From Fibrobacteria bacterium (GTDB lineage: Bacteria; Fibrobacterota; Fibrobacteria; UBA11236), in NCBI GenBank assembly GCA_050486505.1, contig JBJHDK010000004.1:2548-66547 (forward strand): 64,000 nt of DNA. Direction: 5' to 3'. Within the stretch, counting starts at the first letter, position 1. Each line of letters starts with the position of its first letter. Shown here piece by piece: positions 9,107 to 58,218 of the stretch. The notes beneath the pieces are model-generated. The model searched no databases and was not told the DNA's origin. It saw only the letters and a program-made list of their open reading frames with translations. Made by a program: the position numbers and the translations under genes.

Positions 9107-9679
9107 CTAGTTGTTGAGAAGTTTCTCCCGATCATAGATGAACTCCTGCCGGGTCTGGTACACTTTCGGCACCTTGTTGGTCATCTCGATGGCTTCCTTG
9201 GGGCAGGCCTCCACGCAGTAGCCGCAGTAGATGCACTTCAGCATGTCGATCTCGAACACGCGCGGAATCTTGTCGCGACCTTCCCACTCGGGCGGCGCAG
9301 CCTCGGCCTCGATGGTGATGCAATGCGCGGGGCAGGCGGTGGCGCACATGTAACAGGCCACGCACTTCATGTGTCCTTCGTCGTCCTTCGTCAGGCGATG
9401 CTCCCCGCGGAAGCGCTCGCTCACGCGCGGCTTCTCCTCGGGGTAGTTGAAGGTCACCGGCTTGCGGAAGAACTCGCGGAGCGAAATGAGCATGCCCTTC
9501 GCGATCATCGGCAGGTAGATGCGCGTGATCCACGACATCTTTTCGGTCACCTTGCGCGCGGCCGAAGGAGCGGGAACCTGTTCCGCAGGCTCGCCGCCGT
9601 TCAGGATGACGGGGGGTTCCTTGACATCCATTCCCTGCCAGGGGTTCCGGGGCGTCTGAGAAGAAGCACTACCGGACAT
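9107..9679 (-). CDS. nuoI: NADH-quinone oxidoreductase subunit I (2x[4Fe-4S] ferredoxin-type)
   Basis: Two CxxCxxCxxxCP motifs (CIYCGYCVEACP, CVACYMCATACP). 190 aa. Confidence 0.93.
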   Translation of the reverse strand: MSGSASSQTPRNPWQGMDVKEPPVILNGGEPAEQVPAPSAARKVTEKMSWITRIYLPMIAKGMLISLREFFRKPVTFNYPEEKPRVSERFRGEHRLTKDDEGHMKCVACYMCATACPAHCITIEAEAAPPEWEGRDKIPRVFEIDMLKCIYCGYCVEACPKEAIEMTNKVPKVYQTRQEFIYDREKLLNN

Positions 9680-12214: not shown

Positions 12215-12235
12215 CTCGGTGTAGACCCATTCGGA

Positions 12236-12340
12236 CATTGGACAGTGGACAATGGACAATGGACAATGGAAGTCCGTATCGCGAACCCGCCGTAGCCCGC
12301 AACGGGTTGCCCTCTATTCCCCATTGTCCACTGCCCACTG
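12236..12340. repeat. Long inverted repeat with (TGGACAA)x3 tandem heptads between nuoF and nuoG
   Basis: Left arm tggacagtggacaatggacaatggacaatgg. Right arm ccattgtccactgcccactgtcca, which is the near-perfect reverse complement. The arms are separated by about 45 nt that carry their own small palindrome. Confidence 0.6.
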
Positions 12341-12347
12341 TCCATTC

Positions 12348-13736: not shown

Positions 13737-14464
13737 GCGTTCCCCCGTTCGACGGGATCGGAGACCGGCGCAGTCAGGGGCGTCTTCAACGGCGGTGGAA
13801 CGACCGTCGTGCGCGGCGCGGTTCCCGGAGCCAGATAGGGATCTTTGTCGTCGAAGCGGCGTGCGCCGGTTTGCGTTTCGCCCTCGAAGTTGTAGTGGTT
13901 CGGCAGCACCGACACGCGCAGGTCCATGGCGAGGCCCGGCTTGCCCTGATAGTCGGCGACAGATTTGCCCTCGGCCTTGAGAAGCGAGTCGATGTAGTTG
14001 TCGAGCACGACACCCTTCATGGAGCAGAAGTGCTCGGAGTCCTTTTGCACCACGGGCGGCTTGTCGCAGTCGGCAAGGCACTCGACCTTCTCGCAGGAGA
14101 ACAGGCCGTCCGCGGTGCGCTCGCCGGGGCCGATGCCGATCCGCGCGCGGATCTGCCGCAGGGCCTGCGCGGTGTTGCCGTCGAGCGCGCACATCAGCGT
14201 GGCGCACACCATGAAACGGTGCTTGCCGTGCGCGGGGCGCTTGAAGTGGGTGTAGAAGGTGACCATGCCCTGCACGTGGGCGACGCTGACACCGCACAGT
14301 TCCGCGGCGATGAGCATGCCGTCGTCGTCGATGCAGCCGAACTCCTCCTCGACGAGGCGGAGCACCATCATGAGCATGGAGCGCTTGTTGGGGTACTCGT
14401 CGACCCAGTCGTGGAATTGCTTCATCCCCTCGGGGGAGAGGGTTTTCTTCGTGTCGGCACTCAT
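13733..14464 (-). CDS. nuoE: NADH-quinone oxidoreductase subunit E (24 kDa, 2Fe-2S) with Pro-rich C-terminal extension
   Basis: NuoE/thioredoxin-like core (…CATLMCALDG…EKVECLADC…) followed by a Pro/Thr-rich tail of about 70 aa. 243 aa. Confidence 0.88.
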   Translation of the reverse strand: MSADTKKTLSPEGMKQFHDWVDEYPNKRSMLMMVLRLVEEEFGCIDDDGMLIAAELCGVSVAHVQGMVTFYTHFKRPAHGKHRFMVCATLMCALDGNTAQALRQIRARIGIGPGERTADGLFSCEKVECLADCDKPPVVQKDSEHFCSMKGVVLDNYIDSLLKAEGKSVADYQGKPGLAMDLRVSVLPNHYNFEGETQTGARRFDDKDPYLAPGTAPRTTVVPPPLKTPLTAPVSDPVERGNA

Positions 14465-15675
14465 CAGCGATCCAGCTCCCCGGCGATGATGTTGAGCGAA
14501 CCCAGGATCGCCACCACGTCGGCCAGCATCGCCCCCTCCATCAACTTCCCGAAGATCGGGTAGTTGATGAACGAAGGCGGACGCACGCGCACGCGCCAGG
14601 GGTTCGAGCTCCCGTCGGAGACAAGGTGGAAGCCCAGCTCCCCGTTGGGGGACTCCGTGGCGGAATACAGGTCGGTGACCGGAGGATTCAGCCCGTGCTC
14701 CTCGCCCGGCATGATCATCTTGAAATGGTGGATCATCGATTCCATGTCGGTGTAGGTCGACAGCTTGTCGGGCAGGGCGTGCTTCTGGTCGAGCGCAGAG
14801 ATGGGGCCCGGCTCCAGCATCTTCAGCGCCTGGCGCACGATGCGGATGCTCTGGTCCATCTCGTCGAGACGAACCTTGTAGCGCGCCAGGCAGTCGCCCT
14901 CGGTGTACACCGGCACGTCGAAGTCGAGCTCGTTGTAGATCAGGTAGGGGCGATACTTGCGCAGGTCGTATTCCACGCCCGCCGCGCGCGCCAAGGGGCC
15001 GGTGATGCCATAGCTGTCGGCCTCTTCCGCCGTGATGATCCCGATGCCCGCCGTGCGGTCGATGAAGATACGGTTCTTGTAGAAGCTCTCACGCAGCATC
15101 CCGACAGTCTTCTCCATGCTGTCGAGGATCGTCAGCACGCGCTTCTCGAAGTCGGCGGGCAGGTCGAAGGCCACTCCTCCCACGCGGGTGTAACTCGTGG
15201 TGAGGCGCGTGCCCGTCACCGCCTCGAACACGTCGTAGAGCTTCTCGCGCTCGACGAAGGTCCACAACAGCGAGGAAAAGGCGCCGAGGTCCATGGCGAG
15301 CGCGCCCACGCACAGGGAGTGGTCGGCCATGCGCGACAGCTCACACAGGATGGTGCGGATGACCTGGCAGCGCCGCGGCGTCTCGAGCCCGATCAACTCC
15401 TCGACGGCAAGGGCAAAGCCGATATTGTTGTTGAGCGGCGAGAAATAATTGAGCCGGTCGCTCAGCGTGATGAACTGGTTGTAGGTGCGGTATTCGCCCA
15501 GCTTTTCGAAGCCGGTGTGCAGGAACCCGATTTCCTGCTCGGCACGCAGCACGCGCTCGCCGCGCACCTCCATCATCACGCGCAAGGTGCCGTGCATCGC
15601 GGGATGCGAAGGCCCCACGTTCATGCGGACGACGTTGTCGTCGCGCTCGGTGACTTCTTGCTCGTAGGAATACAT
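14464..15675 (-). CDS. nuoD: NADH-quinone oxidoreductase subunit D (49 kDa)
   Basis: Start at ATG 15675 (MYSYEQEVTERDDNVVRMNVGPSHPAMHGTLRV…). Canonical NuoD sequence. The longer ORF N-terminus is not used. Confidence 0.93.
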   Translation of the reverse strand: MYSYEQEVTERDDNVVRMNVGPSHPAMHGTLRVMMEVRGERVLRAEQEIGFLHTGFEKLGEYRTYNQFITLSDRLNYFSPLNNNIGFALAVEELIGLETPRRCQVIRTILCELSRMADHSLCVGALAMDLGAFSSLLWTFVEREKLYDVFEAVTGTRLTTSYTRVGGVAFDLPADFEKRVLTILDSMEKTVGMLRESFYKNRIFIDRTAGIGIITAEEADSYGITGPLARAAGVEYDLRKYRPYLIYNELDFDVPVYTEGDCLARYKVRLDEMDQSIRIVRQALKMLEPGPISALDQKHALPDKLSTYTDMESMIHHFKMIMPGEEHGLNPPVTDLYSATESPNGELGFHLVSDGSSNPWRVRVRPPSFINYPIFGKLMEGAMLADVVAILGSLNIIAGELDR

Positions 15676-15676
15676 G

Positions 15677-16234
15677 TCAGTCGCGCGCCTCCGCGGGTGC
15701 CCTGTGCGCCGGAATCGCATGGTACACCGGGAAGGCACCGCGCTCGCCCCGGCCGCGCAGGGGATAGTCCTTGCGCAGGGGATAACCTTCGTAGTCATCG
15801 GGCATGAGAATGCGCTTCAGGTCGGGATGCCCGGTGAACTCGATTCCGTAGAGGTCGAAGATCTCGCGCTCAGTCCAGTCGCAGCCGGCGAACAGGTCGA
15901 CATTCGAGTCGATGCGGGGCGCGTCCGCGGGCACGAAGGCGCGCACCTGGGCCTTTACTCCGAGTTTGGGGGACAGGAGGGTCGTCACGACCGCAAAGCG
16001 TTCGGGCATGGCCTTGGGGTATTTCAGGTAATCGGCGCCGCAGCAATCGACGAAGCGGGTGAACGCCAACTCGGGGTCTTCCTTGAGAAGGCGCACCAGA
16101 TCGCGGGCATCGGCACCACGCACGGAGAACTGCACGTACTGGGTCTTCTCTTCCTTGCCGAGAAGGCGGTCCCCGAAGGCGGCTTCCACCTTGCCCGCGA
16201 GAACGGAAAGATTCCCCTTGCGGTAGGTCAGCAT
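15677..16234 (-). CDS. nuoC: NADH-quinone oxidoreductase subunit C (30 kDa)
   Basis: 185-aa NuoC-like protein, separate from nuoD (not a fused CD subunit). Confidence 0.88.
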   Translation of the reverse strand: MLTYRKGNLSVLAGKVEAAFGDRLLGKEEKTQYVQFSVRGADARDLVRLLKEDPELAFTRFVDCCGADYLKYPKAMPERFAVVTTLLSPKLGVKAQVRAFVPADAPRIDSNVDLFAGCDWTEREIFDLYGIEFTGHPDLKRILMPDDYEGYPLRKDYPLRGRGERGAFPVYHAIPAHRAPAEARD

Positions 16235-22947: not shown

Positions 22948-23819
22948 GGGGTTGCCTTTCTCCGCGACGGAGTCCCGCGGACACCGGCCGATAGTTCGGC
23001 GCTTTCCCTGGCCGAACTCCGCGGCGTCAGATCTCCGAGCGGGAAAAATTTCTTGCGGTCGGGAAGGTCGCGAAACCGGATGCGAAACTCCTTGGGCGTG
23101 AGGCCCTTGTACTTCAGGAACTGTTTGGTGAAAAAACTGTGGTCGTAAAAGCCCGCCTTCAGTGCGACTTCAGAAATCGGCGAAGTGGTGTCAAGCAGCA
23201 GCCTGCATGCTGCATTCAGTCTGACCATGGAAAGGTAGCGGCCCGGTGTCACCCCGAACTCCTGCTTGAAGCGACGGATCAGGTAGCCAGGGCTCAACCC
23301 GGCAACATCGGCCATTTCTTCGAGCCGGAGCGGCTTCGCGTAGTTCGTCATGATGTGGCGAACCACGGGTTCAAGGGTGCGGTAGGCCGACAACGCCGAA
23401 TCCGCGGAGCGCAGGTCGCGGATGATGCCCACAAGACCCTCGATCCCTCCATCCTTGCCGCGCAGGGGGATTTTGGTCGTCTGGTACCAATCCACCATGC
23501 CGTCCGCGGTGGGAATGATCTCGGGCTTGTTGATTTGCGGAGTCCCGGTCCGAAGAACCTCGCCATCGTCATGGCGGTAGGCTTCTGCCTGCAATGACCA
23601 AAAAAAATCATAGTCGGTCTTGCCGATAATCTGCTCCCCGCCCTCCAGGCCCATCTTTGTCCAGAAGCTGCGATTCGCCATCATGAAGCGGCCTTGCGCA
23701 TCCTTGACGAATACATCGACATTATCAGGAAAATGCTCCATGATTCTCTCGGTGATCTCGTTCTCGCGAAGCCTGTCGAGAAACGCGTGCCGAAGATCCT
23801 CCTCGCGACCAAGCGCCAT
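22944..23819 (-). CDS. PAS domain-containing AraC-family transcriptional regulator (paralog 2)
   Basis: Start at ATG 23819 (MALGREEDLRHAF…). It shows high identity to paralog 1 across the PAS and helix-turn-helix regions and carries an extra C-terminal tail. Its stop overlaps the paralog-1 start as ATGA. Confidence 0.8.
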   Translation of the reverse strand: MALGREEDLRHAFLDRLRENEITERIMEHFPDNVDVFVKDAQGRFMMANRSFWTKMGLEGGEQIIGKTDYDFFWSLQAEAYRHDDGEVLRTGTPQINKPEIIPTADGMVDWYQTTKIPLRGKDGGIEGLVGIIRDLRSADSALSAYRTLEPVVRHIMTNYAKPLRLEEMADVAGLSPGYLIRRFKQEFGVTPGRYLSMVRLNAACRLLLDTTSPISEVALKAGFYDHSFFTKQFLKYKGLTPKEFRIRFRDLPDRKKFFPLGDLTPRSSARESAELSAGVRGTPSRRKATP

Positions 23820-23821
23820 GC

Positions 23822-23950
23822 ATCCCCTCCGAAGTACGACTGTCGAAATGATACCAATGTTATGGCGAGCGAGACCCGTAAGTGAGCGAGAATTTCCACG
23901 TGGGCGGCGCGACACCGGTTAAATTCCCTCGTCCCGCAACCGGACGCGAC
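23822..23950 (+). promoter_or_regulatory. Possible degenerate FMN riboswitch (RFN element) in the ribD leader (needs a covariance-model check)
   Basis: The leader contains GCGAGCG, CCGGTTAAATTCC and AACCGGACG, which resemble the conserved RFN blocks (AGCCCGCGAGCG; CCGGUGNAAUUCCGG; AGUCCGGAUG), and its position in front of ribD is the classic one. Overall the match is partial. Confidence 0.25.
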
Positions 23951-23952
23951 TC

Positions 23953-25065
23953 ATGGATACTCGAACACACCACTCGCGACAGGCACTACGCCACATGGAT
24001 GCGGCCTTCGCCGAAGCGTTGGCCGCCAAGGGGCGGACCCTGCCCAACCCGGCGGTGGGCGCAGTGCTGGTCAGGAACGGCCGCGTCGTGGGGCGCGGCG
24101 GGACGCGGCCGGCAGGACAGGCGCACGCCGAAATCGTCGCGTTGGAGCAGGCTCGCGGCGAAGCGCGAGGAGCCACCCTGTACGTGACGCTCGAGCCCTG
24201 CCGGCACTTCGGCAGAACACCGCCCTGCACCCGCGCCATCATCGACGCCGGTGTGACGAGGGTCGTGGCCGCCTGCACCGACCCCAACCCCAAGGTCGCC
24301 GGAAATGGGCTTGCGGATTTGCGGCGCGCCGGCATCGAGGTCGAATGCGGACTGATGCGCGAGCGCGCCGAAACCTTCTACGCGGGCTTCTTCTTCTGGA
24401 TCCGGAACGGGCGCCCACGCATCGTCGTCAAGGTCGCGCAAAGCCTCGACGGGCGCATCAATGCGCGACCGGGCACGGAAACCCCGCTCACCGGCCTTGA
24501 GGCGCACCACTTCGCACATGCCCTCCGCGCGAGCGCCGATGCGATCCTCATCGGGGGTACAACCCTGCGCAGCGACAACCCGGACCTGACCCCGCGGCTT
24601 GTTCCCGGTGCGCCGGCGCCGGATGTGTTGGTCCTCACGCGCGACCGGATCCCAAGTCCCCGTCACAAGGTCTTCGCCCGCAACCGTCCGTCCCGAACCG
24701 TCGTGATTTCACCGGATCCCCCCCTTAACCTGCCTGCCCACGTGGATCTGGTCCGCATCCCCGGCAAAAGACCGCTTGTGCGGGAACTCCTGAACGTCTT
24801 CGCCGATCGCGGGTACCACGAGATTCTTGTGGAGGGGGGGCGTGCGGTGTGGTCTCCTTTCCTGAACGGGGGACTCTGCGACGCGCTGCATCTCGTCACG
24901 GCGCCGGCGCTCCATCCGGGAGGGGAACGCTGGGATGAAGGTCTTCGGGCAGGATGGGTGAAACCCCTTGAATTTCATAGATTTACGCCGCTTGGCCCTG
25001 ATGTTTGGGCCGAATTTCGACGGCGACCGGCCACCGCAACCGCGCGGAGGAGAACCGCGCCTTGA
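23953..25065 (+). CDS. ribD: Bifunctional riboflavin biosynthesis protein RibD (deaminase/reductase)
   Basis: CMP/dCMP deaminase zinc motif (HAEIVAL…TLEPCRHFGRTPPC) followed by a RibD_C reductase domain. The start is possibly the ATG at 23995. Confidence 0.9.
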   Translation: MDTRTHHSRQALRHMDAAFAEALAAKGRTLPNPAVGAVLVRNGRVVGRGGTRPAGQAHAEIVALEQARGEARGATLYVTLEPCRHFGRTPPCTRAIIDAGVTRVVAACTDPNPKVAGNGLADLRRAGIEVECGLMRERAETFYAGFFFWIRNGRPRIVVKVAQSLDGRINARPGTETPLTGLEAHHFAHALRASADAILIGGTTLRSDNPDLTPRLVPGAPAPDVLVLTRDRIPSPRHKVFARNRPSRTVVISPDPPLNLPAHVDLVRIPGKRPLVRELLNVFADRGYHEILVEGGRAVWSPFLNGGLCDALHLVTAPALHPGGERWDEGLRAGWVKPLEFHRFTPLGPDVWAEFRRRPATATARRRTAP

Positions 25066-27818: not shown

Positions 27819-30623
27819 ATGCTCAACGAAAAAAAGTTGGACGTCATTCTGGCGCTGACTGTATTCTTCGCCGCATTCTTCGTGTACCTGTCCACGATGG
27901 CACCCACAGTCTCCTGGTGGGACACCGGGGAATGGATCGCCTCGTCGTATGTCCTGGGAAACCCCCACCCCCCGGGGAATCCCCTTTTCACCTTGTTGGG
28001 ACGCGCCTTCGTCGTCGCCATGCCCATCTGGGAGAAAGCGGCGCGGATCAACTTCATCTCCGTGCTTACGATGGCCTTGAGCGCGATGGTCGCCTTCCTG
28101 TTCATCCTGAAGGCGATGCGCCTCATTTTCAACAAGGGAGGACTCAACCGCTTCGCCCTGTATTCGGGCGCCGTCATCGGTGGTTTCCTGGTCGCATTCT
28201 CCGACACGGTCTGGTTCAGCGCGGTGGAAACCGCCGCGTACAGCCCGGCGATGCTGATCGTGATGCTCACTGGCCTCCTGAGCCTGCATTGGTACGCGCG
28301 GCGCGGCACCCCGGCCGCTGACCGGCTTCTCCTTCTCATCGCCTATATCGGCTTTCTGGGCGTCGGCGTGCACATCTTCGCGTTCATCACCATCCCCGTG
28401 ATCGCGCTGTTCGTGCTCCTCGACAAGGAGTCCCGGTCCAACATCCCGCTCATCCTTGCGGGCGTGCTGCTGCTGTCCGTCATTTACGACATCGGCAACT
28501 TCGTCTTCTACGCCGCCGCCTCCCTCGCATTCTGCGTCACGGGGTATCTGGTTGCCCGTGCTCCCGAATGGCGTCGGCGCTGGTCGCTCGCGGGCTGGCT
28601 GAGCCTTGCCGCCATTCTCGGGTTCTCCACCTACATCTATGCCCCGGTCCGTTCCCACACCAATGTGTTGATCGACGAGGGCGCCCCCCGCACATGGCCC
28701 CTGCTGAAGGAGTACCTGGAACGCAAGCAGTACGGTTCCGAATCGATGCTGCGGCGAGCCTTCCATCGCCGCGCCCAGATCGGCCACCAGATCCTGATCC
28801 ACCCCCACATGGGCTACGGGGGCTATATGCTCTCGCAATACTTCCCCTGGAAGGTTGGCGATCGCAGCGAGGAAACCGTGGTCACCACCCGGAACCTCCT
28901 CGGCAAGGAGCTTGTCTTCCCGGAGCTGTACCGCTCGCTGCAGGGGCGAACCGGAACCCAAATCGGGCTTTTCCTGCTTCTGCAGATCCCCTTCATCTGG
29001 GGAGTCCTGCTCGCTTACCGCCGCAACCGAAAAATCGGCGCGTTCATCGGCGCGCTGTACGTCGCGACCAGTTACGGCCTCATCTTCTACCTCAACTTCG
29101 CGGATGGCACGCGCATGGAACTGCGCGACTACCAGTGGTGGAAGAGCACGGGATTCGACCCGAACCAGCAACCTCCCCCGGTTCACATGGAGGTGCGCGA
29201 ACGCGATTACTTCTTCACGCCCGGGTTCATGTACATGGGCATCCTGTTCGGCGTTTCGGCTGTCTTCCTGCTGAACTGGATCGCCTCCCGGCGCAGGTTG
29301 CTGCTGCGCCCGGCCGGCTTTGCCCTGATCGGCCTGGCCTTCGCTCTTCCCGTGTGGTCGAACTACCGTGAGCACGACCGCTCCCGCGACTTCGTGCCTT
29401 ACGACTACGCCTACAACCTGCTGAACTCCTGCCGTCCGAACTCGATCCTGTTCACCAACGGAGACAACGACACGTTCCCGCTCTGGTTCATGCAGCAGGT
29501 CGAGGGGATCCGTACCGACGTGCGCGTCGTGAACCTCTCGCTGGTGAACACCACCTGGTACATGCACCAGCTTTACGAGCACGAGCCGAAACTGAAAATC
29601 GGATTCACGCCCGAGGAGATCGAGAACCTCCGTCCGCAGCCGTGGCGCTTCCGCGGTCCGGTCGAGATCACGATTCCCGGAACGCAGATCCGCTACCAAC
29701 TGGACCCCCTCCCTTACCTTCGCGTTCAGGACATCATGGTGCTGCACATCGTGCAAAACAACTTCCCCGAGCGCCCTGTTCACTTCGCCGTCACCATCGG
29801 CGGCAACAACGCGATGGGCCTTGAGAGATTCACGGTCATGGAAGGCATGGTGTATACCCTCGTCGAAGAGCCGCGCGATCGAGAAATCGACGTCGTCGCC
29901 ACCGCCCGCCTCGTGGACTCTGTCTACCAGTTCCGCGGTCTCGGCGATCCCCGCGTGCACATCGACAAGACCACCGAGGGCTTGCTGACCAACTACTCCG
30001 CGACCAACTTCAGGCTGGCGGGGTGGGCACAGGACAGCCTCGAGAAAGTGATGCGGGAGCTGGAGCGCCTGCGCGGCCGCGATGGTCTGGGACGTGCCGA
30101 AACGGAGCGTCTTGCCGTCCTCGAAGAATCCCGCGAAGAAATGCTGGCCTTCGCCGAGCGCTACCTCGGGCTGAATGCGCGCATCCTCCCGGGTGAATGG
30201 CGCGTCCACTACTACCTGGGCCAGCTTTACCATCTCGCGGGCGAGCCCGGGAAGGCGGAATCGGCCTTCCGCGACGGCATGCGGACCCGCGGACCCGCGG
30301 CGAAGATTTTCGCCCTCAACCTGATGCAGCTCTTCATGGATGCCGGGCGAAGCGACGAGGCCAAGGCCGTGCTTTCCGAAATGACGGTGCGTTTTCCCGA
30401 GGATCTTGAAGTCGCATACCGTCTCGCGGAGATGTACCAGCAGGAAGGCGACTTCACCCGCGCGCGCGACATTCTTTCGAGATGGCTGCGGGCGAATCCC
30501 AATCACGAGTACGCGCGGCCCATCGAACAGCAGCTCCGCCAGCTGGAGTCGATGCCGCAGCGGGAGCTCCCGCCTCCGTCGCACGAGATCGAGGCTGAGA
30601 TTCCCGGCCTCCTTCCGGAGTAA
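27819..30623 (+). CDS. DUF2723 (TMEM260/TMTC-like, GT-C fold) polytopic membrane protein with C-terminal TPR repeats; putative lipid-linked-sugar-dependent (protein) glycosyltransferase
   Basis: 934-aa protein. The N-terminal 500-550 aa carry at least 10 TM helices and the DUF2723 hallmark VSWWDTGEW near the first loop. The C-terminal 300 aa form a TPR array (…YYLGQLYHLAGEPGKAESAFRDGM…AYRLAEMYQQEGDFTRARDIL…). It starts 9 nt after nusB. Confidence 0.75.
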   Translation: MLNEKKLDVILALTVFFAAFFVYLSTMAPTVSWWDTGEWIASSYVLGNPHPPGNPLFTLLGRAFVVAMPIWEKAARINFISVLTMALSAMVAFLFILKAMRLIFNKGGLNRFALYSGAVIGGFLVAFSDTVWFSAVETAAYSPAMLIVMLTGLLSLHWYARRGTPAADRLLLLIAYIGFLGVGVHIFAFITIPVIALFVLLDKESRSNIPLILAGVLLLSVIYDIGNFVFYAAASLAFCVTGYLVARAPEWRRRWSLAGWLSLAAILGFSTYIYAPVRSHTNVLIDEGAPRTWPLLKEYLERKQYGSESMLRRAFHRRAQIGHQILIHPHMGYGGYMLSQYFPWKVGDRSEETVVTTRNLLGKELVFPELYRSLQGRTGTQIGLFLLLQIPFIWGVLLAYRRNRKIGAFIGALYVATSYGLIFYLNFADGTRMELRDYQWWKSTGFDPNQQPPPVHMEVRERDYFFTPGFMYMGILFGVSAVFLLNWIASRRRLLLRPAGFALIGLAFALPVWSNYREHDRSRDFVPYDYAYNLLNSCRPNSILFTNGDNDTFPLWFMQQVEGIRTDVRVVNLSLVNTTWYMHQLYEHEPKLKIGFTPEEIENLRPQPWRFRGPVEITIPGTQIRYQLDPLPYLRVQDIMVLHIVQNNFPERPVHFAVTIGGNNAMGLERFTVMEGMVYTLVEEPRDREIDVVATARLVDSVYQFRGLGDPRVHIDKTTEGLLTNYSATNFRLAGWAQDSLEKVMRELERLRGRDGLGRAETERLAVLEESREEMLAFAERYLGLNARILPGEWRVHYYLGQLYHLAGEPGKAESAFRDGMRTRGPAAKIFALNLMQLFMDAGRSDEAKAVLSEMTVRFPEDLEVAYRLAEMYQQEGDFTRARDILSRWLRANPNHEYARPIEQQLRQLESMPQRELPPPSHEIEAEIPGLLPE

Positions 30624-31762
30624 TGCCCGTGCCGGAGGGGGCAACGCGTCCGCGCGTGCTGATCGTCAACTGGAGGGATATCCGCAACCCCGCGGCGGGC
30701 GGGGCGGAGGTTCACCTCCACGAGACGGCGCGCAGGCTCGTGCACAACGGCTTTGACGTCGTGCAATATGCGCACGCCTTCCCCGGCGGATCCGCCGAAG
30801 ACAATGTCGACGGCGTGGAAATCCACCGGAAGGGGAACGCGTTCCTCTTCAATTACACCGCCCTGCTCAATCTGCGCCGATGGGTGCGCCGCCACCGCAT
30901 CGATGTCGTGATCGACGACTCGAACAAGGTTTGTTTCCTGCTCCCGTTGGTTTCGCCGGTTCCGGTCGTGGCGCGCTTCCATCATCTTTTCGGACGTTCC
31001 ATTTTCCGGGAAGCCGGGTTTTTCCCCGCCCTGTACGTCTATCTCTTCGAGTGCATGATCGGCCCCGTGTATCGACGCACCCGCATCCTGACGGTATCGC
31101 CCAGTACACGCGCCGAATTGGAAGCCAAGGGCCTGCGGCGCATCACGATCGCGCTCAACGGCGTCGACCGCTCCGTGTACCGCGTGATTCCCGGAGCGGA
31201 GAAGATCCCTTTTCGCATCGTCCACATTGGGCGCATCAAGCGCTACAAGAAGCTCGACACCCTTCTTCACGCGCTGGTGCATGTGCGGCACGAGTTCCCG
31301 CAGGCGCATCTGGTGGTCGGAGGCGGGGGGAACGACCTCCCCGCGCTGCGCAGGCTTGCGCTCTCGCTCGGAATCGGGGATGCGGTCGATTTCCGGGGGT
31401 TCGTTTCCGAGGAAGAAAAGGTGCGGCTTTACAACGAGGCCCAGGTGTTCGTGAACGCCTCCCTGAAGGAGGGCTGGGGCCTGACGTCCGTCGAAGCCAA
31501 CGCCTGCGGGACACCCGTGGTCGCCACCGACGCGCCCGGTTTGCGCGACAGCGTGCGCCACGACGTGACCGGCCTGCTCGTGCCTCCCGATTCCCCGGAC
31601 AAGTTCGCTGCCGCAATCGTCAGCCTCCTCCGCGACCCGGAGCGGCTCTCGCGCATGCGGGAAGCGGCCATGGAGTGGGCTGCCGCGCACGATTGGGACC
31701 GCGCCGCCGGGGTTACGCGCGACGTCCTGCTTGAGGCGGTTTCCGGGAGATCCGCGCCATGA
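30623..31762 (+). CDS. Glycosyltransferase family 4 (GT-B, retaining)
   Basis: 379-aa protein with the GT4/EX7E-type C-terminal motif (…KEGWGLTSVEANACGTPVVATD…). Its start codon overlaps the upstream stop. Confidence 0.83.
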   Translation: MPVPEGATRPRVLIVNWRDIRNPAAGGAEVHLHETARRLVHNGFDVVQYAHAFPGGSAEDNVDGVEIHRKGNAFLFNYTALLNLRRWVRRHRIDVVIDDSNKVCFLLPLVSPVPVVARFHHLFGRSIFREAGFFPALYVYLFECMIGPVYRRTRILTVSPSTRAELEAKGLRRITIALNGVDRSVYRVIPGAEKIPFRIVHIGRIKRYKKLDTLLHALVHVRHEFPQAHLVVGGGGNDLPALRRLALSLGIGDAVDFRGFVSEEEKVRLYNEAQVFVNASLKEGWGLTSVEANACGTPVVATDAPGLRDSVRHDVTGLLVPPDSPDKFAAAIVSLLRDPERLSRMREAAMEWAAAHDWDRAAGVTRDVLLEAVSGRSAP

Positions 31763-32802
31763 CCACCGAAACCCCGAAGGAAGGCATGAAGCCGGAAGGG
31801 CGCCCCCCCGTCCCGGGCCGCTTCTGGTTCTGGACACGCGTCCTTGCCGTCATCGGCATCCTGTGGTGGGTGGTCGAGCGCAACGGCGGCGCACGCATCG
31901 CCCACGCGCTTCTCTCTGCTGATCCGCGTTGGGTCGCGGCGGCGGCGGCGGTCTTCTTTCTGTCGATCGTCCTCGCTGCCTGGCAATGGAGCCTGCTTCT
32001 GCGCATCCAGGGCATCCGTTTCGGATTCAAGGCATGTTTCAGGTCTTATTACTCGGGAATGTTCCTCAACAATTTTCTTCCCGGCACCGTCGGGGGAGAC
32101 GCCCTGCGCGTTTGGGACGTACATCGCCACGAAACTTCGCTGGGACGCGCCGCCGCTTCGACCCTGCTTGACCGCCTGATGGGTTTCAGTGCGCTGTCGT
32201 TCTTCTCCCTGATCGCGCTCGCCATCGAATTTCATCGGCAAGATCTCCCGCAGGGGTTGCTGGTGCACTTGTTGCAGGCGGTTGGGGCCGTTGCCGTCGC
32301 CTTTCTGTTTCTTCTTTTGCTGCTGCTCAGCAGGAGATTTTCGGGGGGACTCCACGCGATCATCCGTGCCCTCGGGTTGCAGCGACTCGGCAACATCCAC
32401 GCCAAGGTGCAAGATGCACTGATGGCCTACAAGGCTCGCTGGGGAAGCATCGGCATCGTCTTCCTGGTCGCCTGCACCGTCCAGCTGCTGCGAATCTCCG
32501 TGCACGCCTTTTGCGCCATGGCGCTCGGGCTTTCGCTCGCACCGGTGTTTTTCTTTTCGTTCATCCCCTTGATCGCGCTGACTGCCGTGCTCCCCTTGAA
32601 CGTGGGCGGTTGGGGCGTCCCGCAGGGGCTCGGCGCCTACCTTTACTCCCTGCCCGGAATCCTGGCCGTGTCGACGCTCGACCCGCGCGCCGCTGCGGCG
32701 GCGCTCGCCTTCCTTCCCACCGCCATCGGCATGGTGGTGATGCTCGGCGGGGGTATTTACCTTGTCTTCCGTCCCTCACAACCATCCCGGAAGGCCATGT
32801 GA
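31759..32802 (+). CDS. Flippase-like membrane protein, lysylphosphatidylglycerol-synthase TM-region family (UPF0104)
   Basis: 347-aa polytopic protein with the family's signature segment (…SYYSGMFLNNFLPGTVGGDALRVWD…). It overlaps the upstream GT4 gene by 4 nt. Confidence 0.72.
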   Translation: MTTETPKEGMKPEGRPPVPGRFWFWTRVLAVIGILWWVVERNGGARIAHALLSADPRWVAAAAAVFFLSIVLAAWQWSLLLRIQGIRFGFKACFRSYYSGMFLNNFLPGTVGGDALRVWDVHRHETSLGRAAASTLLDRLMGFSALSFFSLIALAIEFHRQDLPQGLLVHLLQAVGAVAVAFLFLLLLLLSRRFSGGLHAIIRALGLQRLGNIHAKVQDALMAYKARWGSIGIVFLVACTVQLLRISVHAFCAMALGLSLAPVFFFSFIPLIALTAVLPLNVGGWGVPQGLGAYLYSLPGILAVSTLDPRAAAAALAFLPTAIGMVVMLGGGIYLVFRPSQPSRKAM

Positions 32803-33752
32803 CGCGACTCAGTCTTGTTCTTCCCGCCTTCAACGAAGCGGAGAGCCTCCCCATCCTCCTGGAGGAGATCCGCTCGGTGTGCGAATCGGAGGGCATCGCC
32901 TACGAAGCCATCATCGTCGACGACGGCAGCACGGACGGCACCTTCGAGCGCGCCACCGAGGCCGCCTCCCGCGACTCGCGCGTCCATGCCGTGCGCTTCC
33001 GGCGCAACAGCGGCAAGGCGGCGGCGCTTGCCGAAGGGTTCCGGCGCGCGCAGGGCGAGTACGTCATCACCATGGACGCCGACCTGCAGGACAACCCGTC
33101 GGAAATTCCGGAACTGATCCGAATGCTGGAAGCCGGCTCCGACATGGTTTCAGGCTGGAAGAAAGTACGCCACGATCCCTGGCACAAGACTTTGCCCTCG
33201 AAGCTGTTCAACGCGGTCACGGCCATGGCTTCGGGCCTGCCCCTGCACGACTTCAATTGCGGGCTCAAGGCCTATCGCCGCGAGGTGGTGGAAAGCATCG
33301 AGCTCTACGGCGAGTTTCACCGGTACATCCCCGTGCTTGCACACTGGGACGGGTTCCGTGTCGAGGAGAAAGTCGTCGAGCATCGGGCACGGCGTTACGG
33401 AAACTCCAAATACGGTTGGGCGCGCCTGAGCAACGGATTGTTCGACCTGATCACCCTGCTCTTTCTTCACCGCTACACGCGCCGCCCGCTGCACCTGTTC
33501 GGCTTCGTCGGCATGTTGTTCACCGCGCTGGGGGTGGCGATTCTCGCCGGTTTCGGCATCAGCTGGCTCGCAACCGGAGCGCTGCACGTGCGGCCCCTGA
33601 TGCTCGGCGGCGTCGCCTTCATGCTGGTGGGCGTTCAATTCGTTTCGCTCGGACTGCTGGGGGAGCTGGTGAACCAGCGCTTCGCCGCGTCATCCCCCCC
33701 GCCCCCCGTCGCCCGCGAGACCCCTGGAGCGCCGCCGGCCCGGTCCCGATGA
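32799..33752 (+). CDS. GT2 polyprenol-phosphate glycosyltransferase (ArnC/GtrB/DPM1-like) with C-terminal TM anchor
   Basis: GTG start at 32799, overlapping the upstream stop (ATGTGA). The N-terminus VTRLSLVLPAFNEAESL…IIVDDGSTDGT…MDADLQDNP is followed by two C-terminal TM helices, as is typical of ArnC/GtrB. Confidence 0.83.
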   Translation: MTRLSLVLPAFNEAESLPILLEEIRSVCESEGIAYEAIIVDDGSTDGTFERATEAASRDSRVHAVRFRRNSGKAAALAEGFRRAQGEYVITMDADLQDNPSEIPELIRMLEAGSDMVSGWKKVRHDPWHKTLPSKLFNAVTAMASGLPLHDFNCGLKAYRREVVESIELYGEFHRYIPVLAHWDGFRVEEKVVEHRARRYGNSKYGWARLSNGLFDLITLLFLHRYTRRPLHLFGFVGMLFTALGVAILAGFGISWLATGALHVRPLMLGGVAFMLVGVQFVSLGLLGELVNQRFAASSPPPPVARETPGAPPARSR

Positions 33753-34591
33753 AAATCTTGGTCGCGGGCTGCAACGGCCTGCTCGGCCAGAACCTGCTCC
33801 GTTGCGCTCCGGCCGGGACGGAACTTCACGGACTGGCCCGGCATCCCGCGGCCCGGCTTCCGGGTCACCTGGCCTCCTTCCATTCCCGCGACATCACCGC
33901 CCCGGAAACATGGGACTTCGTTCGAGCGACGATCCGTCCCGAGCGGATCCTCAATGTCGCCGCGATCACCGATGTCGATGGCTGCGAACGTGCCCCTGTT
34001 GCATGTTCGCGCGTCAACCATGACGCCGTGAGCCTGATGACCGGAACGGGAATCCCGGTCGTGCAGCTTTCAACCGATTACGTGTTCGACGGAAGCTCCG
34101 GCCCCTACCGGGAGGAGGATGCAACGAATCCCCCCAATGCCTACGGCCGCATCAAGCTCGCCTCGGAGGCTCTTGCACTCGAGGGTTCTCCCGCCGGACT
34201 GGTGGTGCGCACCATGTGGGTTTGGGGCGAAGGAACGGGGACGAAGAAAAGCTTTCCGGCCTTTGTGGAGGAGACCTTGCGGGGTGGCGGCGTCGTGCGC
34301 GCCGTGACGGACCAGACCGGAAACCCGACGTGCGCGGAGGGCCTGGCGCGGGCGATCTGGGCCTTGGTGACGGGGGGGTGCTCCGGCGTCTATCACGTTG
34401 CGGGGAGCACTCTGCTGAGCCGCTTCGACTGGGCCCGGCACATCGCGGAATCGCGAGGGCTCGATGCATCCCGGATCGTTGCCGTAACCACGGCGGAGCT
34501 CGGACTCGCCGCACCACGGCCCTTGCGGTCGGGACTGGTCAGCGACAAGCTGTTCCGCGACACGGGGACCAGGTTGCAGGGCATCGAATAG
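33749..34591 (+). CDS. NAD(P)-dependent reductase, RmlD (dTDP-4-dehydrorhamnose reductase)-like
   Basis: MKILVAGCNGLLGQNL… Rossmann start and a STDYVFDG…Y…K catalytic-region pattern. ATG 33749 overlaps the upstream stop (ATGA). The track's 609-aa ORF is a frame fusion with the antisense strand and is rejected. Confidence 0.72.
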   Translation: MKILVAGCNGLLGQNLLRCAPAGTELHGLARHPAARLPGHLASFHSRDITAPETWDFVRATIRPERILNVAAITDVDGCERAPVACSRVNHDAVSLMTGTGIPVVQLSTDYVFDGSSGPYREEDATNPPNAYGRIKLASEALALEGSPAGLVVRTMWVWGEGTGTKKSFPAFVEETLRGGGVVRAVTDQTGNPTCAEGLARAIWALVTGGCSGVYHVAGSTLLSRFDWARHIAESRGLDASRIVAVTTAELGLAAPRPLRSGLVSDKLFRDTGTRLQGIE

Positions 34592-34690
34592 TCCCGTCGC
34601 CCCCAGTGCCCCCTGGCCGTCGCGGAATCGCGGACGATCCCCATCTTTCGCCTGCTATATTAGGCCCTCACGTCATCAGACCGGACTTCC

Positions 34691-35398
34691 ATGCCCAGAA
34701 CCCTCATCATCATCCCGACCTACAACGAGATCGAGAATCTCCCGCTGATGATTCCCGCTCTGGAGGCGCTTGACCTCGGACTCGAGGTTCTCGTCGTCGA
34801 CGATGGTTCGCCCGACGGCACCGGGGCCTGGGTCAGGGAGCAACAGGCCTCGAAGCCGCACCTGCACCTGATCGAGCGCTCCGGCAAACAGGGGCTCGGA
34901 TCCGCGTACGTCGCGGGGTTCAAATATGCGCTGGAGCGCGATTATGAACTCATCTTTGAAATGGACGCGGATTTCTCGCACGACCCGGCCTACATCAAGG
35001 ATTTTCTCGCTGCGATCCACGACGCGGACCTCGTCATCGGCAGCCGCTACATCAACGGCGTCAATGTCGTGAACTGGCCCATGAGCCGCCTGCTTCTGAG
35101 CTACTTCGCCAACATGTACGCACGGCTGGTGACCGGGCTTCCGGTCCGCGACGCCACGGGCGGATTCAAGTGCTTCCGCGCCGACGCCCTGCGCAAGCTC
35201 GACCTCGACCGCATCAGCTCGGGCGGCTACTCTTTCCAGATCGAAGTGAACTACAAGCTGTGGAAGAAGGGTTGCCGCATCCGCGAAATCCCCATCATCT
35301 TCAAGGACCGCACGTTGGGTGCCTCCAAAATGTCGGGGAAAATCATCAAGGAAGCCCTGTTCCTGCTGGTGAAGCTGCGCCTTGGCGGAGGAAAGTGA
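34691..35398 (+). CDS. Polyprenol monophospho-sugar synthase (dolichol-phosphate mannosyltransferase Dpm1-like, GT2), soluble form
   Basis: MPRTLIIIPTYNEIENL…VVDDGSPDGT…EMDADFSHDP…GGFKCFR. It aligns closely with Dpm1/Ppm1 catalytic domains. 235 aa with no TM segment. Confidence 0.85.
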   Translation: MPRTLIIIPTYNEIENLPLMIPALEALDLGLEVLVVDDGSPDGTGAWVREQQASKPHLHLIERSGKQGLGSAYVAGFKYALERDYELIFEMDADFSHDPAYIKDFLAAIHDADLVIGSRYINGVNVVNWPMSRLLLSYFANMYARLVTGLPVRDATGGFKCFRADALRKLDLDRISSGGYSFQIEVNYKLWKKGCRIREIPIIFKDRTLGASKMSGKIIKEALFLLVKLRLGGGK

Positions 35399-37137
35399 GG
35401 ACGGGGGACCAACCCTTCGACTCCACTTCGGTAAACTCAGTGCGATACCCCCAGGACAAGAGCCAGGATGCGGGAGACGAGGAGGGACAAGGAGCACCCC
35501 CAACCTCTTCCCCCCTGCCTACTGCCTACCCAAGGGGCGTCTCTGTCATCATCGTCTCCTACAACGTCCGCGAATTTCTTGATGCCTGCCTGCAGAGCAT
35601 CCGCCACGCTGCGGCGGGTTTCGACGGAAAAATCGAGGTCATCGTGTTCGACAACGACTCGCACGATGGCACTGTATCGCTGCTGCGGCCACGTTGGCCC
35701 GATGTCACCTGGATCGCTTCGGATCGCAACCTCGGCTTCGGATCAGGGTGCAACCGCGGTGCCGCAGTGGCCACGCAAGACCTGCTGCTGTTTCTCAACC
35801 CCGACACCTTGGTTCGCGAAGACACCTTCCGGGTCATGCGCGACTTTTTCTCGGGACGCGGCGACGTGGGGGCGGCCGGCTGCAAGATCGTGAACCGCGA
35901 CGGCAGCCTGCAGGCCGCAGCGAAGCGCAGTTTCCCCTCCCCGCGCGTAGCGGCCTACAAATTCATGGGCCTCGGCAGTCTTTTCCCGAAAAGCCGTGTT
36001 TTCGGCCGCTACAACCTGACCTATCTCGACGAGAACGAGACTCATGAGGTCGACGCGATCTCGGGTTCCTTCATGTGCATGCGCGCCGAAGTGTTCCGCA
36101 AGGCGGGAGGCTTTGACGAGGACTTTTTCATGTACGGGGAAGATCTGGACCTCTGCTTCCGGATCAAATTGTTGGGGCTGCGCAACTACTACCACCCGGC
36201 CACTCAGGTGGTCCACTTCAAGGGCGAGAGCGCGAAAAGCCGTCCCTTCCGGTCCTTCCTGTATTTCCACGAGGCCATGATCCTCTTCGCCCGCAAGCAT
36301 CTTGAACTGCACGCGCTGCCGGGATTCCTGCTGAATGCCGGCATCATCGTCCTGGCCGCGGCCAATTTCATCTCTTCGCGCTTCCGCAAGTGGAGCCGCT
36401 GGCTCGCCGATCTCGTCGTGGTCAACGGAGTGCTCGCTGCGACAGCCTACGCCTACCACAACATCCTCGACATCCGCCACGTCGCGACAGAGTACCCCGG
36501 CATGTATCTGCTGTCGCATTTACTCGTTTCCCTCGCGGTATTGCTTCCCTTCGCCTACATCGGCGAGTACGGCCGTCGCGTCGCACCTCCGCGCGCGGTT
36601 CTGTTCGCAGCCGCAGGCGGATTTCTTGCCTTCTTTTCCTTGAGCTACTTCCTCCACGAGCACGCCTATTCAAGGGTCGTCTTCGGAGTCACGGGTCTCC
36701 TGAGCGTCGCCCTGCTTTCGGGATGGCGCTGGGTTCGGTCGCACGGAGGCAAGCTTTTCCGAAAGCTCATGGACGGTTCCCGGCGCGTCGCCATTCTCGG
36801 AACCGGGGCGCGGGCCCTCGCGCTCGCGGAACTCATCCACTCGGATCGCGTGGAGGGTTATGAATGCGTCGGCTTCATCCATTTTCCAAAGGGCCCGGCG
36901 CCTCCCGAGGTGCGGGCAAGCGTGATCGGCGAAGTCGATTCCCTGCCGGGGTTGTCGAGAAAACTCGACCTCGCCGGAGTCATTGTTGCATTGGAGGGCG
37001 ACGCATACCCCGCGGCACTCGAAATCCTCGCGCAACAGGGCGCGCGAGCACTTGAGGTCAAGGTGCTGCTGGGGCCTCCGGAACCGGGGAAATTCAGCCT
37101 GATCGACCTTAATTTCGCGGATTCCCCGAAACAGTGA
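35395..37137 (+). CDS. Multidomain protein: N-terminal GT2 glycosyltransferase, central polytopic membrane domain, C-terminal CoA-binding-like domain
   Basis: Probable GTG start at 35395 with a GGAGG site 7 nt upstream, overlapping the Dpm1-like stop. GT2 core (VSVIIVSYNV…FDNDSHDGT…GFGSGCNRG…MYGEDLDLCFR) is followed by 5-6 TM helices, then a VAILGTGARALALAELI…ECVGFI…GV domain resembling the N-terminal CoA-binding/Rossmann domain of polysaccharide-biosynthesis sugar transferases. Confidence 0.65.
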   Translation: MRTGDQPFDSTSVNSVRYPQDKSQDAGDEEGQGAPPTSSPLPTAYPRGVSVIIVSYNVREFLDACLQSIRHAAAGFDGKIEVIVFDNDSHDGTVSLLRPRWPDVTWIASDRNLGFGSGCNRGAAVATQDLLLFLNPDTLVREDTFRVMRDFFSGRGDVGAAGCKIVNRDGSLQAAAKRSFPSPRVAAYKFMGLGSLFPKSRVFGRYNLTYLDENETHEVDAISGSFMCMRAEVFRKAGGFDEDFFMYGEDLDLCFRIKLLGLRNYYHPATQVVHFKGESAKSRPFRSFLYFHEAMILFARKHLELHALPGFLLNAGIIVLAAANFISSRFRKWSRWLADLVVVNGVLAATAYAYHNILDIRHVATEYPGMYLLSHLLVSLAVLLPFAYIGEYGRRVAPPRAVLFAAAGGFLAFFSLSYFLHEHAYSRVVFGVTGLLSVALLSGWRWVRSHGGKLFRKLMDGSRRVAILGTGARALALAELIHSDRVEGYECVGFIHFPKGPAPPEVRASVIGEVDSLPGLSRKLDLAGVIVALEGDAYPAALEILAQQGARALEVKVLLGPPEPGKFSLIDLNFADSPKQ

Positions 37138-38473: not shown

Positions 38474-39148
38474 ATGACACGTCCAGCATCGACTCCGGAT
38501 CAGCACGAGCCTCCAGGAATGGTGGCAGGGTTCGCCCGCACCGCGGAAGCCCTGCACCTGGACGGCGATACCGATGCCGCGCTGCAGTTGCTTGCGGAGG
38601 GAATCCGCCTGCGGCCCCGCGATGTGACGGGGCGTCTCGTGCTCGCGCGCGTCTGCCTCGACAGCGGACGGCGGGGCGAAGCCGTCGAGTGGCTTGAGAG
38701 TGTGTTGCGTGCTGATCCGGACTGCCCGGCGGCTCTCGTACAATTGGCCGAATTGCGCGCCGATGCGGAAACTGCGAGGTACAGAAAACGGGCCCTTGCG
38801 CGCGAGCCTTGGGACGAATCCGAAAGTCTTTCCACGAACACGCCGAATGTCGACCAGACACCCGCGAGCCCCGAACTCGAGTCGGCTCCCGCACCGATAC
38901 CCCATGTTCTACCCGTGCAAGAGGACGAGGAGCTTCCCGAAGACGAAGATCCCGCAAATCTTCCGCACATTGCCACGGCCACTCTGGCCGAGATATATTT
39001 CCAGCAGGGCCTGAAAGAGCAGGCAGCGCAAATTTACCGCCTGATTTTGGAGCGGCATCCAGGGGACGCTTCCGCGAGGGAACGCCTTGAGGTGATTGAA
39101 ACTTCCATTGAGGGGCCCGCTCCGCGGGCAACGGACGAAAACGGTTAG
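38474..39148 (+). CDS. TPR repeat-containing protein
   Basis: 224-aa protein with TPR-like N-terminal helices and an acidic middle section. It sits between the Trm112-like gene and accB. Confidence 0.55.
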   Translation: MTRPASTPDQHEPPGMVAGFARTAEALHLDGDTDAALQLLAEGIRLRPRDVTGRLVLARVCLDSGRRGEAVEWLESVLRADPDCPAALVQLAELRADAETARYRKRALAREPWDESESLSTNTPNVDQTPASPELESAPAPIPHVLPVQEDEELPEDEDPANLPHIATATLAEIYFQQGLKEQAAQIYRLILERHPGDASARERLEVIETSIEGPAPRATDENG

Positions 39149-56615: not shown

Positions 56616-57719
<1,104 letters not shown>

Positions 57720-57723
<4 letters not shown>

Positions 57724-58091: not shown

Positions 58092-58218
58092 AGGGTTTCC
58101 CGAGAAAGCGCGGACTCACGAGCCGCATGCAGAACGGGCCGCAATGTTAGAAAGAAGCCGCTTCGATTTAAAGGCGAAATGTGCCGCAAGTGGCTGTTCG
58201 GCACTGATTTCCAGCCGC

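Follow-up and report, generated by a model that had tools for sequence, protein, structure and literature searches.

A putative seven-gene envelope-glycosylation operon of Fibrobacterota with two distinct polyprenyl-phosphate glycosyltransferases and a divergent RmlD-like reductase

The CsbB/GtcA/YfhO and GacI/GacL systems of bacteria follow a common logic, in which a cytoplasmic polyprenyl-phosphate glycosyltransferase (GT), the transbilayer movement of its product and an extracytoplasmic transferase of the GT-C class act together. Among eukaryotes, TMEM260 is a protein O-mannosyltransferase with a GT-C plus tetratricopeptide repeat (TPR) layout that depends on dolichyl-phosphate mannose (Dol-P-Man), and the study that describes it mentions "distant homologs in bacteria" (PMC10214176). 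A full-text literature search for the corresponding domain, DUF2723, returned only this study of human TMEM260 (PMC10214176), and the bacterial family is apparently uncharacterised. Here we analyse a 64,000-nucleotide stretch of contig JBJHDK010000004.1 from a Fibrobacteria bacterium (assembly GCA_050486505.1; the whole stretch is called the window below), which carries a TMEM260-like gene in what appears to be one operon with three family 2 glycosyltransferases, named GT2-A, GT2-B and GT2-C, and an RmlD-like reductase. All the proteins encoded there can be assigned to known superfamilies, and the logic is that of the Gtr, Arn, CsbB/YfhO and Ppm1/protein O-mannosyltransferase (PMT) systems. 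What distinguishes the locus is its TMEM260-type GT-C, an LPG_synthase_TM protein as flippase candidate, donors from two separate subfamilies, a divergent RmlD set among these genes, and a housekeeping position that is conserved across the phylum.

We propose that GT2-A, the RmlD-like reductase and GT2-B stand in the middle of an envelope-glycosylation operon of seven genes (27819-37137) conserved in Fibrobacterota, an explanation to which, taken as a whole with the pathway set out below, we give an even chance. The first-pass annotation of this DNA had described a cluster of three genes, a C-terminally anchored GT2, an RmlD-like reductase and a soluble Dpm1-like GT2. All three open reading frames (ORFs) lie on the + strand at the positions it had given and match Pfam Glycos_transf_2, RmlD_sub_bind and Glycos_transf_2, in that order, but the larger unit to which they belong had been missed, namely the TMEM260-like GT-C, the GT4, the LPG_synthase_TM protein and the third GT2. 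From first to last, the genes of the operon are as follows (aa, amino acids; TM, transmembrane).

27819..30623, + strand: TMEM260-like (DUF2723) GT-C with C-terminal TPR, 934 aa (Pfam TMEM260-like, E=4.4e-37, and TPR families)
30623..31762, + strand: GT4 (GT-B fold), cytoplasmic glycosyltransferase (Glycos_transf_1, E=1.5e-41; Glyco_transf_4, E=2.3e-18)
31759..32802, + strand: LPG_synthase_TM or "flippase-like domain" membrane protein, 347 aa (PF03706, E=2.5e-37; TIGR00374, 72.5 bits, cutoff 43.2)
32799..33752, + strand: GT2-A, 317 aa, GTG start, TGA stop (Pfam Glycos_transf_2, PF00535, E=3.4e-33)
33749..34591, + strand: RmlD-like reductase, 280 aa, ATG start (RmlD_sub_bind, PF04321, E=2.4e-56)
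34691..35398, + strand: GT2-B, 235 aa, ATG start (Glycos_transf_2, E=1e-28)
35395..37137, + strand: GT2-C, a GT2 with TM helices and a CoA_binding_3-like domain (Pfam, NCBIfam)

The junctions GT-C/GT4, GT4/LPG_synthase_TM, LPG_synthase_TM/GT2-A and GT2-A/RmlD-like are all overlaps of 1-4 nucleotides (nt): the start of GT4 shares 1 nt with the stop of the GT-C gene, GT2-A starts within the stop of the LPG_synthase_TM gene (GTGA), and the RmlD-like gene starts within the stop of GT2-A (ATGA). The sole sizeable gap in the operon is the 99 nt between the RmlD-like gene and GT2-B, in which a promoter/terminator scan, otherwise uninformative in this high-GC, non-sigma-70-type organism, found no terminator-like site. 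With GTG 35395 as the start of GT2-C, the overlap between GT2-B and GT2-C is 4 nt; this is the probable start according to the public gene call (L001; L numbers denote the comparison loci) and the 4-nt overlaps found in L084 and L086, and GTG 35440 is the alternative. GC content at third codon positions is 0.76-0.83 in a window of ~64% GC, as expected of coding sequence, and the proteins of the three central genes recur sequence-identical on the independent public assembly (L001).

The block ribH-nusB-GT-C-GT4-LPG_synthase_TM-GT2-A-RmlD-like-GT2-B-GT2-C-accA is fully syntenic in a Fibrobacterota metagenome-assembled genome (MAG; L003), in a 3.75-Mb genome (L084) and on a 1.14-Mb contig (L086), and in L002 it is syntenic up to the contig end. 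The arrangement is present in every Fibrobacterota locus examined, so that the linkage of these genes, which the first-pass annotation had seen in a single genome, does extend to others. Conservation within the phylum falls from GT2-B (70-91% identity) through GT2-A (60-86%) to the reductase (45-64%, and 49-64% in the syntenic loci), the named homologues of all three proteins come from Fibrobacterota/Fibrobacteria MAGs, and GT4 is likewise conserved in the Fibrobacterota loci; the GT2-B homologues of other phyla are 50-60% identical.

In other lineages, GT2-A-like, GT4, large GT-C and GT2-B genes recur together, with a GT-C that is there of the YfhO-like family. L106 has the order sugar-nucleotide short-chain dehydrogenase/reductase (SDR), GT2-A orthologue, GT4, YfhO-like GT-C, GT2-B and GT2-C, a YfhO-like protein likewise stands in the gap in L105 and L108, and GT2-C, which is present in L106- and L012-type loci as well, lies directly downstream of GT2-B in at least 14 of the 80 GT2-B-anchored metagenome loci. 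Because the gene set recurs with a different GT-C family, we read it as one pathway and not as a chance cluster. The YfhO-like GT-C that L012 and L106 carry in the same position links these relatives of the operon to CsbB/GtcA/YfhO, and as in three-component systems a polyprenyl-phosphate GT and a GT-C are encoded together (an association kept in L003, L084 and L086). Unlike CsbB/GtcA/YfhO and GacI/GacL, the operon has as its flippase candidate an LPG_synthase_TM protein instead of a member of the GtrA/GtcA family, two donors, and a diderm housekeeping context.

We also observed that Bacteroidota and Calditrichaceae share an extended block (L005, 1310-12605; L097, 10-7193; L008) in the order DUF2723, (GT2s, PMT_2 GT-C), LPG_synthase_TM, DUF4837, purE, RmlD-like, GT2-B and accA, which suggests an ancient syntenic region, common to Fibrobacterota and allied phyla (FCB), in which glycosylation genes are mixed with unrelated housekeeping genes. 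The PMT_2 GT-C is an extra gene of L005, the DUF2723 gene of L097 is followed directly by the LPG_synthase_TM gene, and the LPG_synthase_TM orthologue of L008 is 45% identical.

GT2-A had been called C-terminally anchored, and a hydropathy scan bears this out, placing two C-terminal hydrophobic helices at 236-254 and 261-290 that form a TM hairpin (~236-290) through which the alignment with ArnC and GtrB extends. Its best solved relative is ArnC, the undecaprenyl-phosphate 4-deoxy-4-formamido-L-arabinose transferase of the Arn pathway (188 bits, E=1.6e-54), followed by GtrB sll0501 (112) and by PfDPMS, the Pyrococcus dolichyl-phosphate-mannose synthase (84), and in a neighbor-joining (NJ) tree of catalytic domains it falls within the ArnC/GtrB clade (bootstrap 93), in a subclade of its own (bootstrap 85) with the L106 orthologue (50-55% identity) and Oscillatoriales proteins (45-51%). 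By the family features drawn from the ArnC structure paper, GT2-A shares with ArnC (35-36% identity) the GT-A domain, the topology of two juxtamembrane plus two TM helices, and the DXD hexapeptide, which reads DADLQD in GT2-A, DADLQN in ArnC and DADLQD in GtrB. GT2-A K121, K130, S134 and R198 stand at ArnC R128, R137, S141 and R205, its nucleotide loop RNSGK (RNxGK) occurs in the UDP-using ArnC and GtrB as well, and GT2-A has a Gly where the ArnC family has Met and GtrB its catalytic Asp157.

ArnC is thus both the top solved structure and the top NCBIfam model for GT2-A, which would suit a reading of GT2-A as an ArnC orthologue and of the locus as an Arn-type system for the aminoarabinose modification of lipid A. 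However, GT2-A scores 203.3 bits against the ArnC equivalog (NCBIfam PRK10714), below its cutoff of 529, has Lys at R128/R137 and Gly for the ArnC-family Met, and sits in a separate subclade; moreover, a tblastn search of the 64-kb window with E. coli queries (E<=1e-8) found no ArnA/B/D/T homologues, GT2-A has no arnA/B/D/T/E/F neighbours, and the neighbouring GT-C is TMEM260-like, not ArnT. With no partners in the window and a score below cutoff the Arn pathway is effectively refuted, and we consider the reading very improbable. The Gtr system was rejected as well, the discriminating GtrB residues being absent from GT2-A: GtrB of Synechocystis (sll0501), an undecaprenyl-phosphate (Und-P) glucose synthase of Gtr-type three-component systems, has the same architecture, DADLQD hexapeptide and RNxGK loop, but is 31% identical (112 bits), and GT2-A has Gly for its Asp157, Ser for the GtrB Ala at the position of ArnC S141, and no GtrA- or GtrC-type neighbours that we could see. 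Judged by its placement and residues, GT2-A is not an orthologue of ArnC, nor is it one of GtrB.

GT2-B had been described as soluble and Dpm1-like. The hydropathy scan found no TM helix in it (a lone borderline hydrophobic segment at 18-36 is a Rossmann beta-strand), and by placement it is of the DPMS type, but at its C-terminal end it has an amphipathic helix, which the alignment matches to the PfDPMS juxtamembrane helix, and it is therefore better called peripheral than soluble. Its best solved relative is PfDPMS (5mlz; 112 bits, E=2.4e-31), followed by ArnC (44); GT2-B and PfDPMS share 36-41% identity over the catalytic domain, and they fall together in the DPMS clade of the NJ tree (bootstrap 99). 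The DAD motif of GT2-B reads DADFSH, and the PfDPMS residues Y10, E12, D39, G68-L69, D89, D91, H94, R117, R131, S135 and R202 are kept, as are the juxtamembrane helices. To these positions the PfDPMS paper assigns roles in GDP-mannose binding (D39), in guanine stacking (G68-L69), in mannose binding (H94 and R117, together with K178), in acceptor binding (R131 and S135, with R117 counted here too) and in the A-loop (R202), and Q93 is assigned to the metal. Unlike PfDPMS, GT2-B has no four-TM domain and has Ser at both Q93 and K178. Having no TM domain of its own, it resembles the catalytic domain of DPM1 and Ppm1, whose sequences it presumably resembles as well; unlike the DPM1/Ppm1 systems, no DPM3- or Ppm2-like anchor was identified for it. 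Several sources annotate GT2-B as a polyprenol monophosphomannose synthase, and we regard it as a candidate polyprenyl-phosphate mannose synthase of the DPM1/Ppm1 type, sequence alone being no proof of mannose specificity.

At the level of sequence there is good support for the proposal that the two enzymes belong to different orthologous groups of the polyprenyl-phosphate glycosyltransferase family and make two distinct lipid-linked donors: they occupy the separate NJ clades described above, are 25-27% identical to one another, and differ in their nucleotide-pocket motifs (RNxGK in GT2-A, KxGLxSA in GT2-B), which is consistent with different donors. We give practically no weight to the idea that GT2-A and GT2-B are recent duplicates with the same job; both match Glycos_transf_2 and have the DAD motif in common, but their best relatives differ, one has two TM helices and the other none, and each is conserved separately at 70-90% across Fibrobacterota. 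A simple duplication is ruled out by the tree and the identity values.

The reductase shares with RmlD and GacA the RmlD_sub_bind fold, the GxxGxxG motif (G7/G10/G13), the STDYVFDG block, the C-terminal Arg-Pro (nucleotide-phosphate) motif and a Thr/Tyr/Lys triad, its T109/Y132/K136 aligning with E. coli positions 104/128/132, the triad T104/Y128/K132 of SeRmlD (PMC4832382). It is probably an active, NAD(P)H-dependent NDP-4-keto-6-deoxyhexose 4-reductase and a divergent RmlD. Unlike RmlD and GacA, it scores 196.4 bits on TIGR01214, below the equivalog cutoff of 224.05 (its clade mates L005 and L012 reach 208 and 230), and although rmlA/B/C genes adjoin the reductase gene in most of the canonical RmlD loci that were retrieved, no homologues of them turned up in the 64 kb of the window or at the loci of Fibrobacterota. 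The source of the reductase substrate is therefore not seen within the 64 kb. An NJ tree on capped gamma-Poisson distances places the reductase in a divergent FCB clade (bootstrap 71) with members from Fibrobacterota, Bacteroidia, Ignavibacteria/Melioribacteraceae, Calditrichaceae, Marinimicrobia and Latescibacterota, outside of which the rmlBC-linked RmlDs of other Bacteroidota fall. At E. coli position 223, Trp is found in 27 of 28 canonical RmlDs and Arg in 16 of 16 members of the FCB clade (including the window, where it is Arg225, L002-L012, L014, L015, L084 and L086), a change that on this alignment is clade-defining and lies within the substrate-binding domain. Two other roles for the reductase were rejected: DprE1/E2-like epimerisation of a lipid-linked sugar, given that there is no FAD oxidase and that the Arg-Pro motif is kept, and a regulatory MAT2B-like role, given that the catalytic triad is intact.

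The hydropathy scan finds ~11 hydrophobic segments in the polytopic TMEM260-like GT-C, whose closest solved structure is TMEM260 itself (9rql, E=4e-17) and in which the first-loop motif W-D35-x-G-E38 and a PHPPG motif are invariant in 5 orthologues; we regard it as a candidate periplasmic transferase that consumes lipid-linked sugars. As in TMEM260/PMT O-mannosylation, the operon combines a synthase of the DPMS type with a GT-C that matches TMEM260 at its N-terminus and bears C-terminal TPRs; unlike the operon, the TMEM260 pathway is eukaryotic and has no counterparts of the second polyprenyl-phosphate GT, GT4, GT2-C, the RmlD-like reductase or the LPG_synthase_TM protein. The GT4 has no TM segment. 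The LPG_synthase_TM protein, with 7 hydrophobic segments, may act as a flippase or as a membrane partner for a lipid-linked sugar and stands in the place of a small flippase of the GtrA/ArnEF/GtcA type, for which no ORF was found in the cluster. GT2-C has no close solved relative; it matches positions 2-221 of polyprenyl glycosylphosphotransferase models, which correspond to their non-catalytic N-terminal half, and lacks the catalytic domain. GT2-C is translationally coupled to GT2-B, which has no TM helix, and may provide its membrane anchor.

We propose the following pathway. On the cytoplasmic face, GT2-B would transfer mannose from GDP-mannose to polyprenyl phosphate, while GT2-A would use a pyrimidine-nucleotide sugar (UDP or dTDP) to make a second polyprenyl-phosphate monosaccharide, and the LPG_synthase_TM protein may help to present or flip both lipids. 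The TMEM260-like GT-C, with its TPR domain in the periplasm, would then pass sugar on to an acceptor in the periplasm; TMEM260 and PMT, taken as analogues, make mannose the likeliest sugar and Ser/Thr residues of proteins the likeliest acceptor, with an envelope glycan as another possibility. GT4 and GT2-C would carry out cytoplasmic-side steps of the same pathway, and the reductase would supply a 6-deoxyhexose nucleotide such as dTDP-L-rhamnose, with GT2-A as its likeliest user and GT2-C or GT4 as alternative users in the cytoplasm. What the analysis shows directly is the structure of the genes, their placement in families, the conservation of their motifs and their synteny, whereas every substrate, the acceptor and the flipping step are inferred. 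Literature searches on Fibrobacter envelope sugars and glycoproteins and on Bacteroidota polyprenol-phosphate-mannose synthases returned nothing usable.

Several points weigh against this scheme. GT2-B departs from PfDPMS at a metal and a mannose position, with the two Ser residues noted above, and GT2-A has Lys rather than Arg at two acceptor-phosphate positions (at one of which, that of R137, GtrB also has Lys). The operon holds a single GT-C for two lipid donors, and neither GDP-mannose genes nor rmlA/B/C or arnA/B/D/T were found within 64 kb. We know of no LPG_synthase_TM protein with demonstrated polyprenyl-phosphate-sugar flippase activity. Further points concern the reductase, which is tightly coupled to GT2-B and not to GT2-A in Bacteroidia (L005), Calditrichaceae (L008), Marinimicrobia (L010) and Latescibacterota (L012), where GT2-B follows it immediately, the two genes overlapping by up to 8 nt or lying up to 11 nt apart; in L008 and L097, GT2-B is the only GT near the reductase. 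Lastly, the functionally unrelated genes accA and purE belong to the same synteny block, so that adjacency may reflect inherited gene order and not function.

The first-pass annotation had suggested that the reductase makes a modified sugar for one of the two GT2s, and this is not established for either of them; rmlA/B/C are absent from the 64 kb. GT2-B has GDP-mannose-type motifs, and 74 of the 80 GT2-B-anchored metagenome loci have no reductase upstream (6 do); for GT2-A, the case is made by translational coupling and by one independent cyanobacterial association. With the evidence split in this way, we regard a link from the reductase to GT2-A in Fibrobacterota as most likely but unproven. 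In its favour are the ATGA overlap of the two genes, found in the window and in L084, Oscillatoriales loci with rmlC-rmlD, an 11-TM protein and the GT2-A orthologue in a row, the different sugar-nucleotide SDR directly upstream of the GT2-A orthologue in L106, and the pyrimidine-type nucleotide loop of GT2-A. Taken further, GT2-A and its orthologues in Fibrobacterota, L106 and the rmlCD-linked Oscillatoriales would be a new polyprenyl-phosphate 6-deoxyhexose (L-rhamnose-type) synthase, fed with dTDP-sugar by the reductase and with its product used by an extracytoplasmic GT-C, which we consider improbable but not negligible. A full-text literature search found no paper naming a lipid-linked rhamnose donor (Und-P-rhamnose). 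If this were true, GT2-A together with GT2-B and the TMEM260-like enzyme would make up a bacterial, housekeeping version of eukaryotic TMEM260 O-mannosylation that has a deoxyhexose branch in addition.

The adjacency of the RmlD-like gene and GT2-B across phyla, with stop and start often overlapping, allows for another partner. An ancestral FCB core of TMEM260-like GT-C, LPG_synthase_TM protein, RmlD-like reductase and GT2-B may make and use a polyprenyl-phosphate 6-deoxyhexose, in which case GT2-B would be no mannose synthase, and its position as sole glycosyltransferase near the reductase in L008 and L097 agrees with this. Against it stand the Gly-Leu pair for guanine stacking and the mannose contacts His94 and Arg117, all kept in GT2-B, its 36-41% identity to PfDPMS over the catalytic domain, its annotation by several sources, and the presence of an upstream reductase in only 6 of 80 loci, and we hold GT2-B to be quite unlikely as the partner.

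A serious rival to any link with GT2-A is that the RmlD-like protein is the lineage's housekeeping dTDP-4-dehydrorhamnose reductase, with rmlABC elsewhere, whose product serves the usual rhamnosyltransferases of the cytoplasm (GT2-C, possibly, or others encoded beyond the operon), and whose position between the two GT2s is a matter of inherited gene order, neither of them receiving its donor from the reductase. The retention of the catalytic core and of most canonical RmlD-conserved columns is in keeping with this, as are the scores of the sister proteins, which straddle the RmlD equivalog cutoff (L012 above; L005 and the window below), the presence of rmlC 2 kb upstream of the FCB-clade RmlD in L004 (Melioribacteraceae), Ignavibacteria clade members without GT2-B nearby, the unrelated accA and purE in the block, and the 74 of 80 GT2-B loci that lack an upstream reductase. 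It is harder to square with the overlaps or gaps of <=26 nt between the RmlD-like gene and GT2-B in loci of five phyla (Fibrobacterota, Bacteroidota, Calditrichota, Marinimicrobia and Latescibacterota), with the ATGA overlap that ties the reductase to GT2-A in the window, with the independent rmlCD/GT2-A-like association in cyanobacteria, with an FCB clade that stands apart from the rmlBC-linked RmlDs of other Bacteroidota, and with the clade-wide change from Trp to Arg in the substrate-binding domain. We regard it as a real, though minority, possibility.

Should the reductase feed GT2-A, as we prefer, the resulting lipid-linked 6-deoxyhexose donor would be new to biochemistry; otherwise a correction of annotation remains, in that GT2-A is not ArnC and this "rmlD" lies in no rml operon. 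The operon also puts a bacterial TMEM260/DUF2723 enzyme beside a probable supplier of mannose lipid and thereby offers a testable model for TMEM260-type glycosylation, and the locus marks both an ArnC/GtrB-like subclade that recurs beside sugar-nucleotide reductases or dehydratases and a divergent clade of RmlD that is confined to Fibrobacterota and the allied FCB phyla.

Two of the Oscillatoriales loci, L081 (7564-18311) and L052, contain a cluster of their own, in the order SDR, methyltransferase, rmlC, rmlD, 11-TM protein (with no Pfam match) and GT2-A orthologue, with two further polytopic proteins on the opposite strand, one of which has DUF6798. This cluster looks like a rhamnose-linked three-component system.

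The operon of the window is not a variable polysaccharide island, and its flanks are housekeeping genes. Upstream lies ribD-ribE-ribBA-ribH-nusB, with the TMEM260-like gene, and so the operon, starting 9 nt past nusB; downstream lie accA, accB, accC, dapA and argBC, and farther out in the window are secDF, recF, gyrB and ATP synthase genes. Scans of all 64 kb for Rfam families and tRNAs returned no match at gathering thresholds, and no FMN riboswitch was detected upstream of ribD (23500-23953) despite the complete ribD-E-BA-H operon. Between accA and accB (38474-39148, + strand) the window encodes a short TPR protein of 224 aa, where L084 (15357-19520) and L086 (14565-18584) have a TPR protein of 760-840 aa; the same two loci carry a T2SSE-type ATPase between accB and accC, which the window does not. 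GC content is 0.57-0.60 at 56649-58475 and 60001-64000, compared with ~0.64 elsewhere, and a ~1.8-kb stretch has no ORF that passes the coding filter. On the - strand, a same-strand run of ORFs at 1348-16234 (482, 508, 635, 110, 200 aa and others) recalls, by sizes alone, the NADH:quinone oxidoreductase (nuo) operon.

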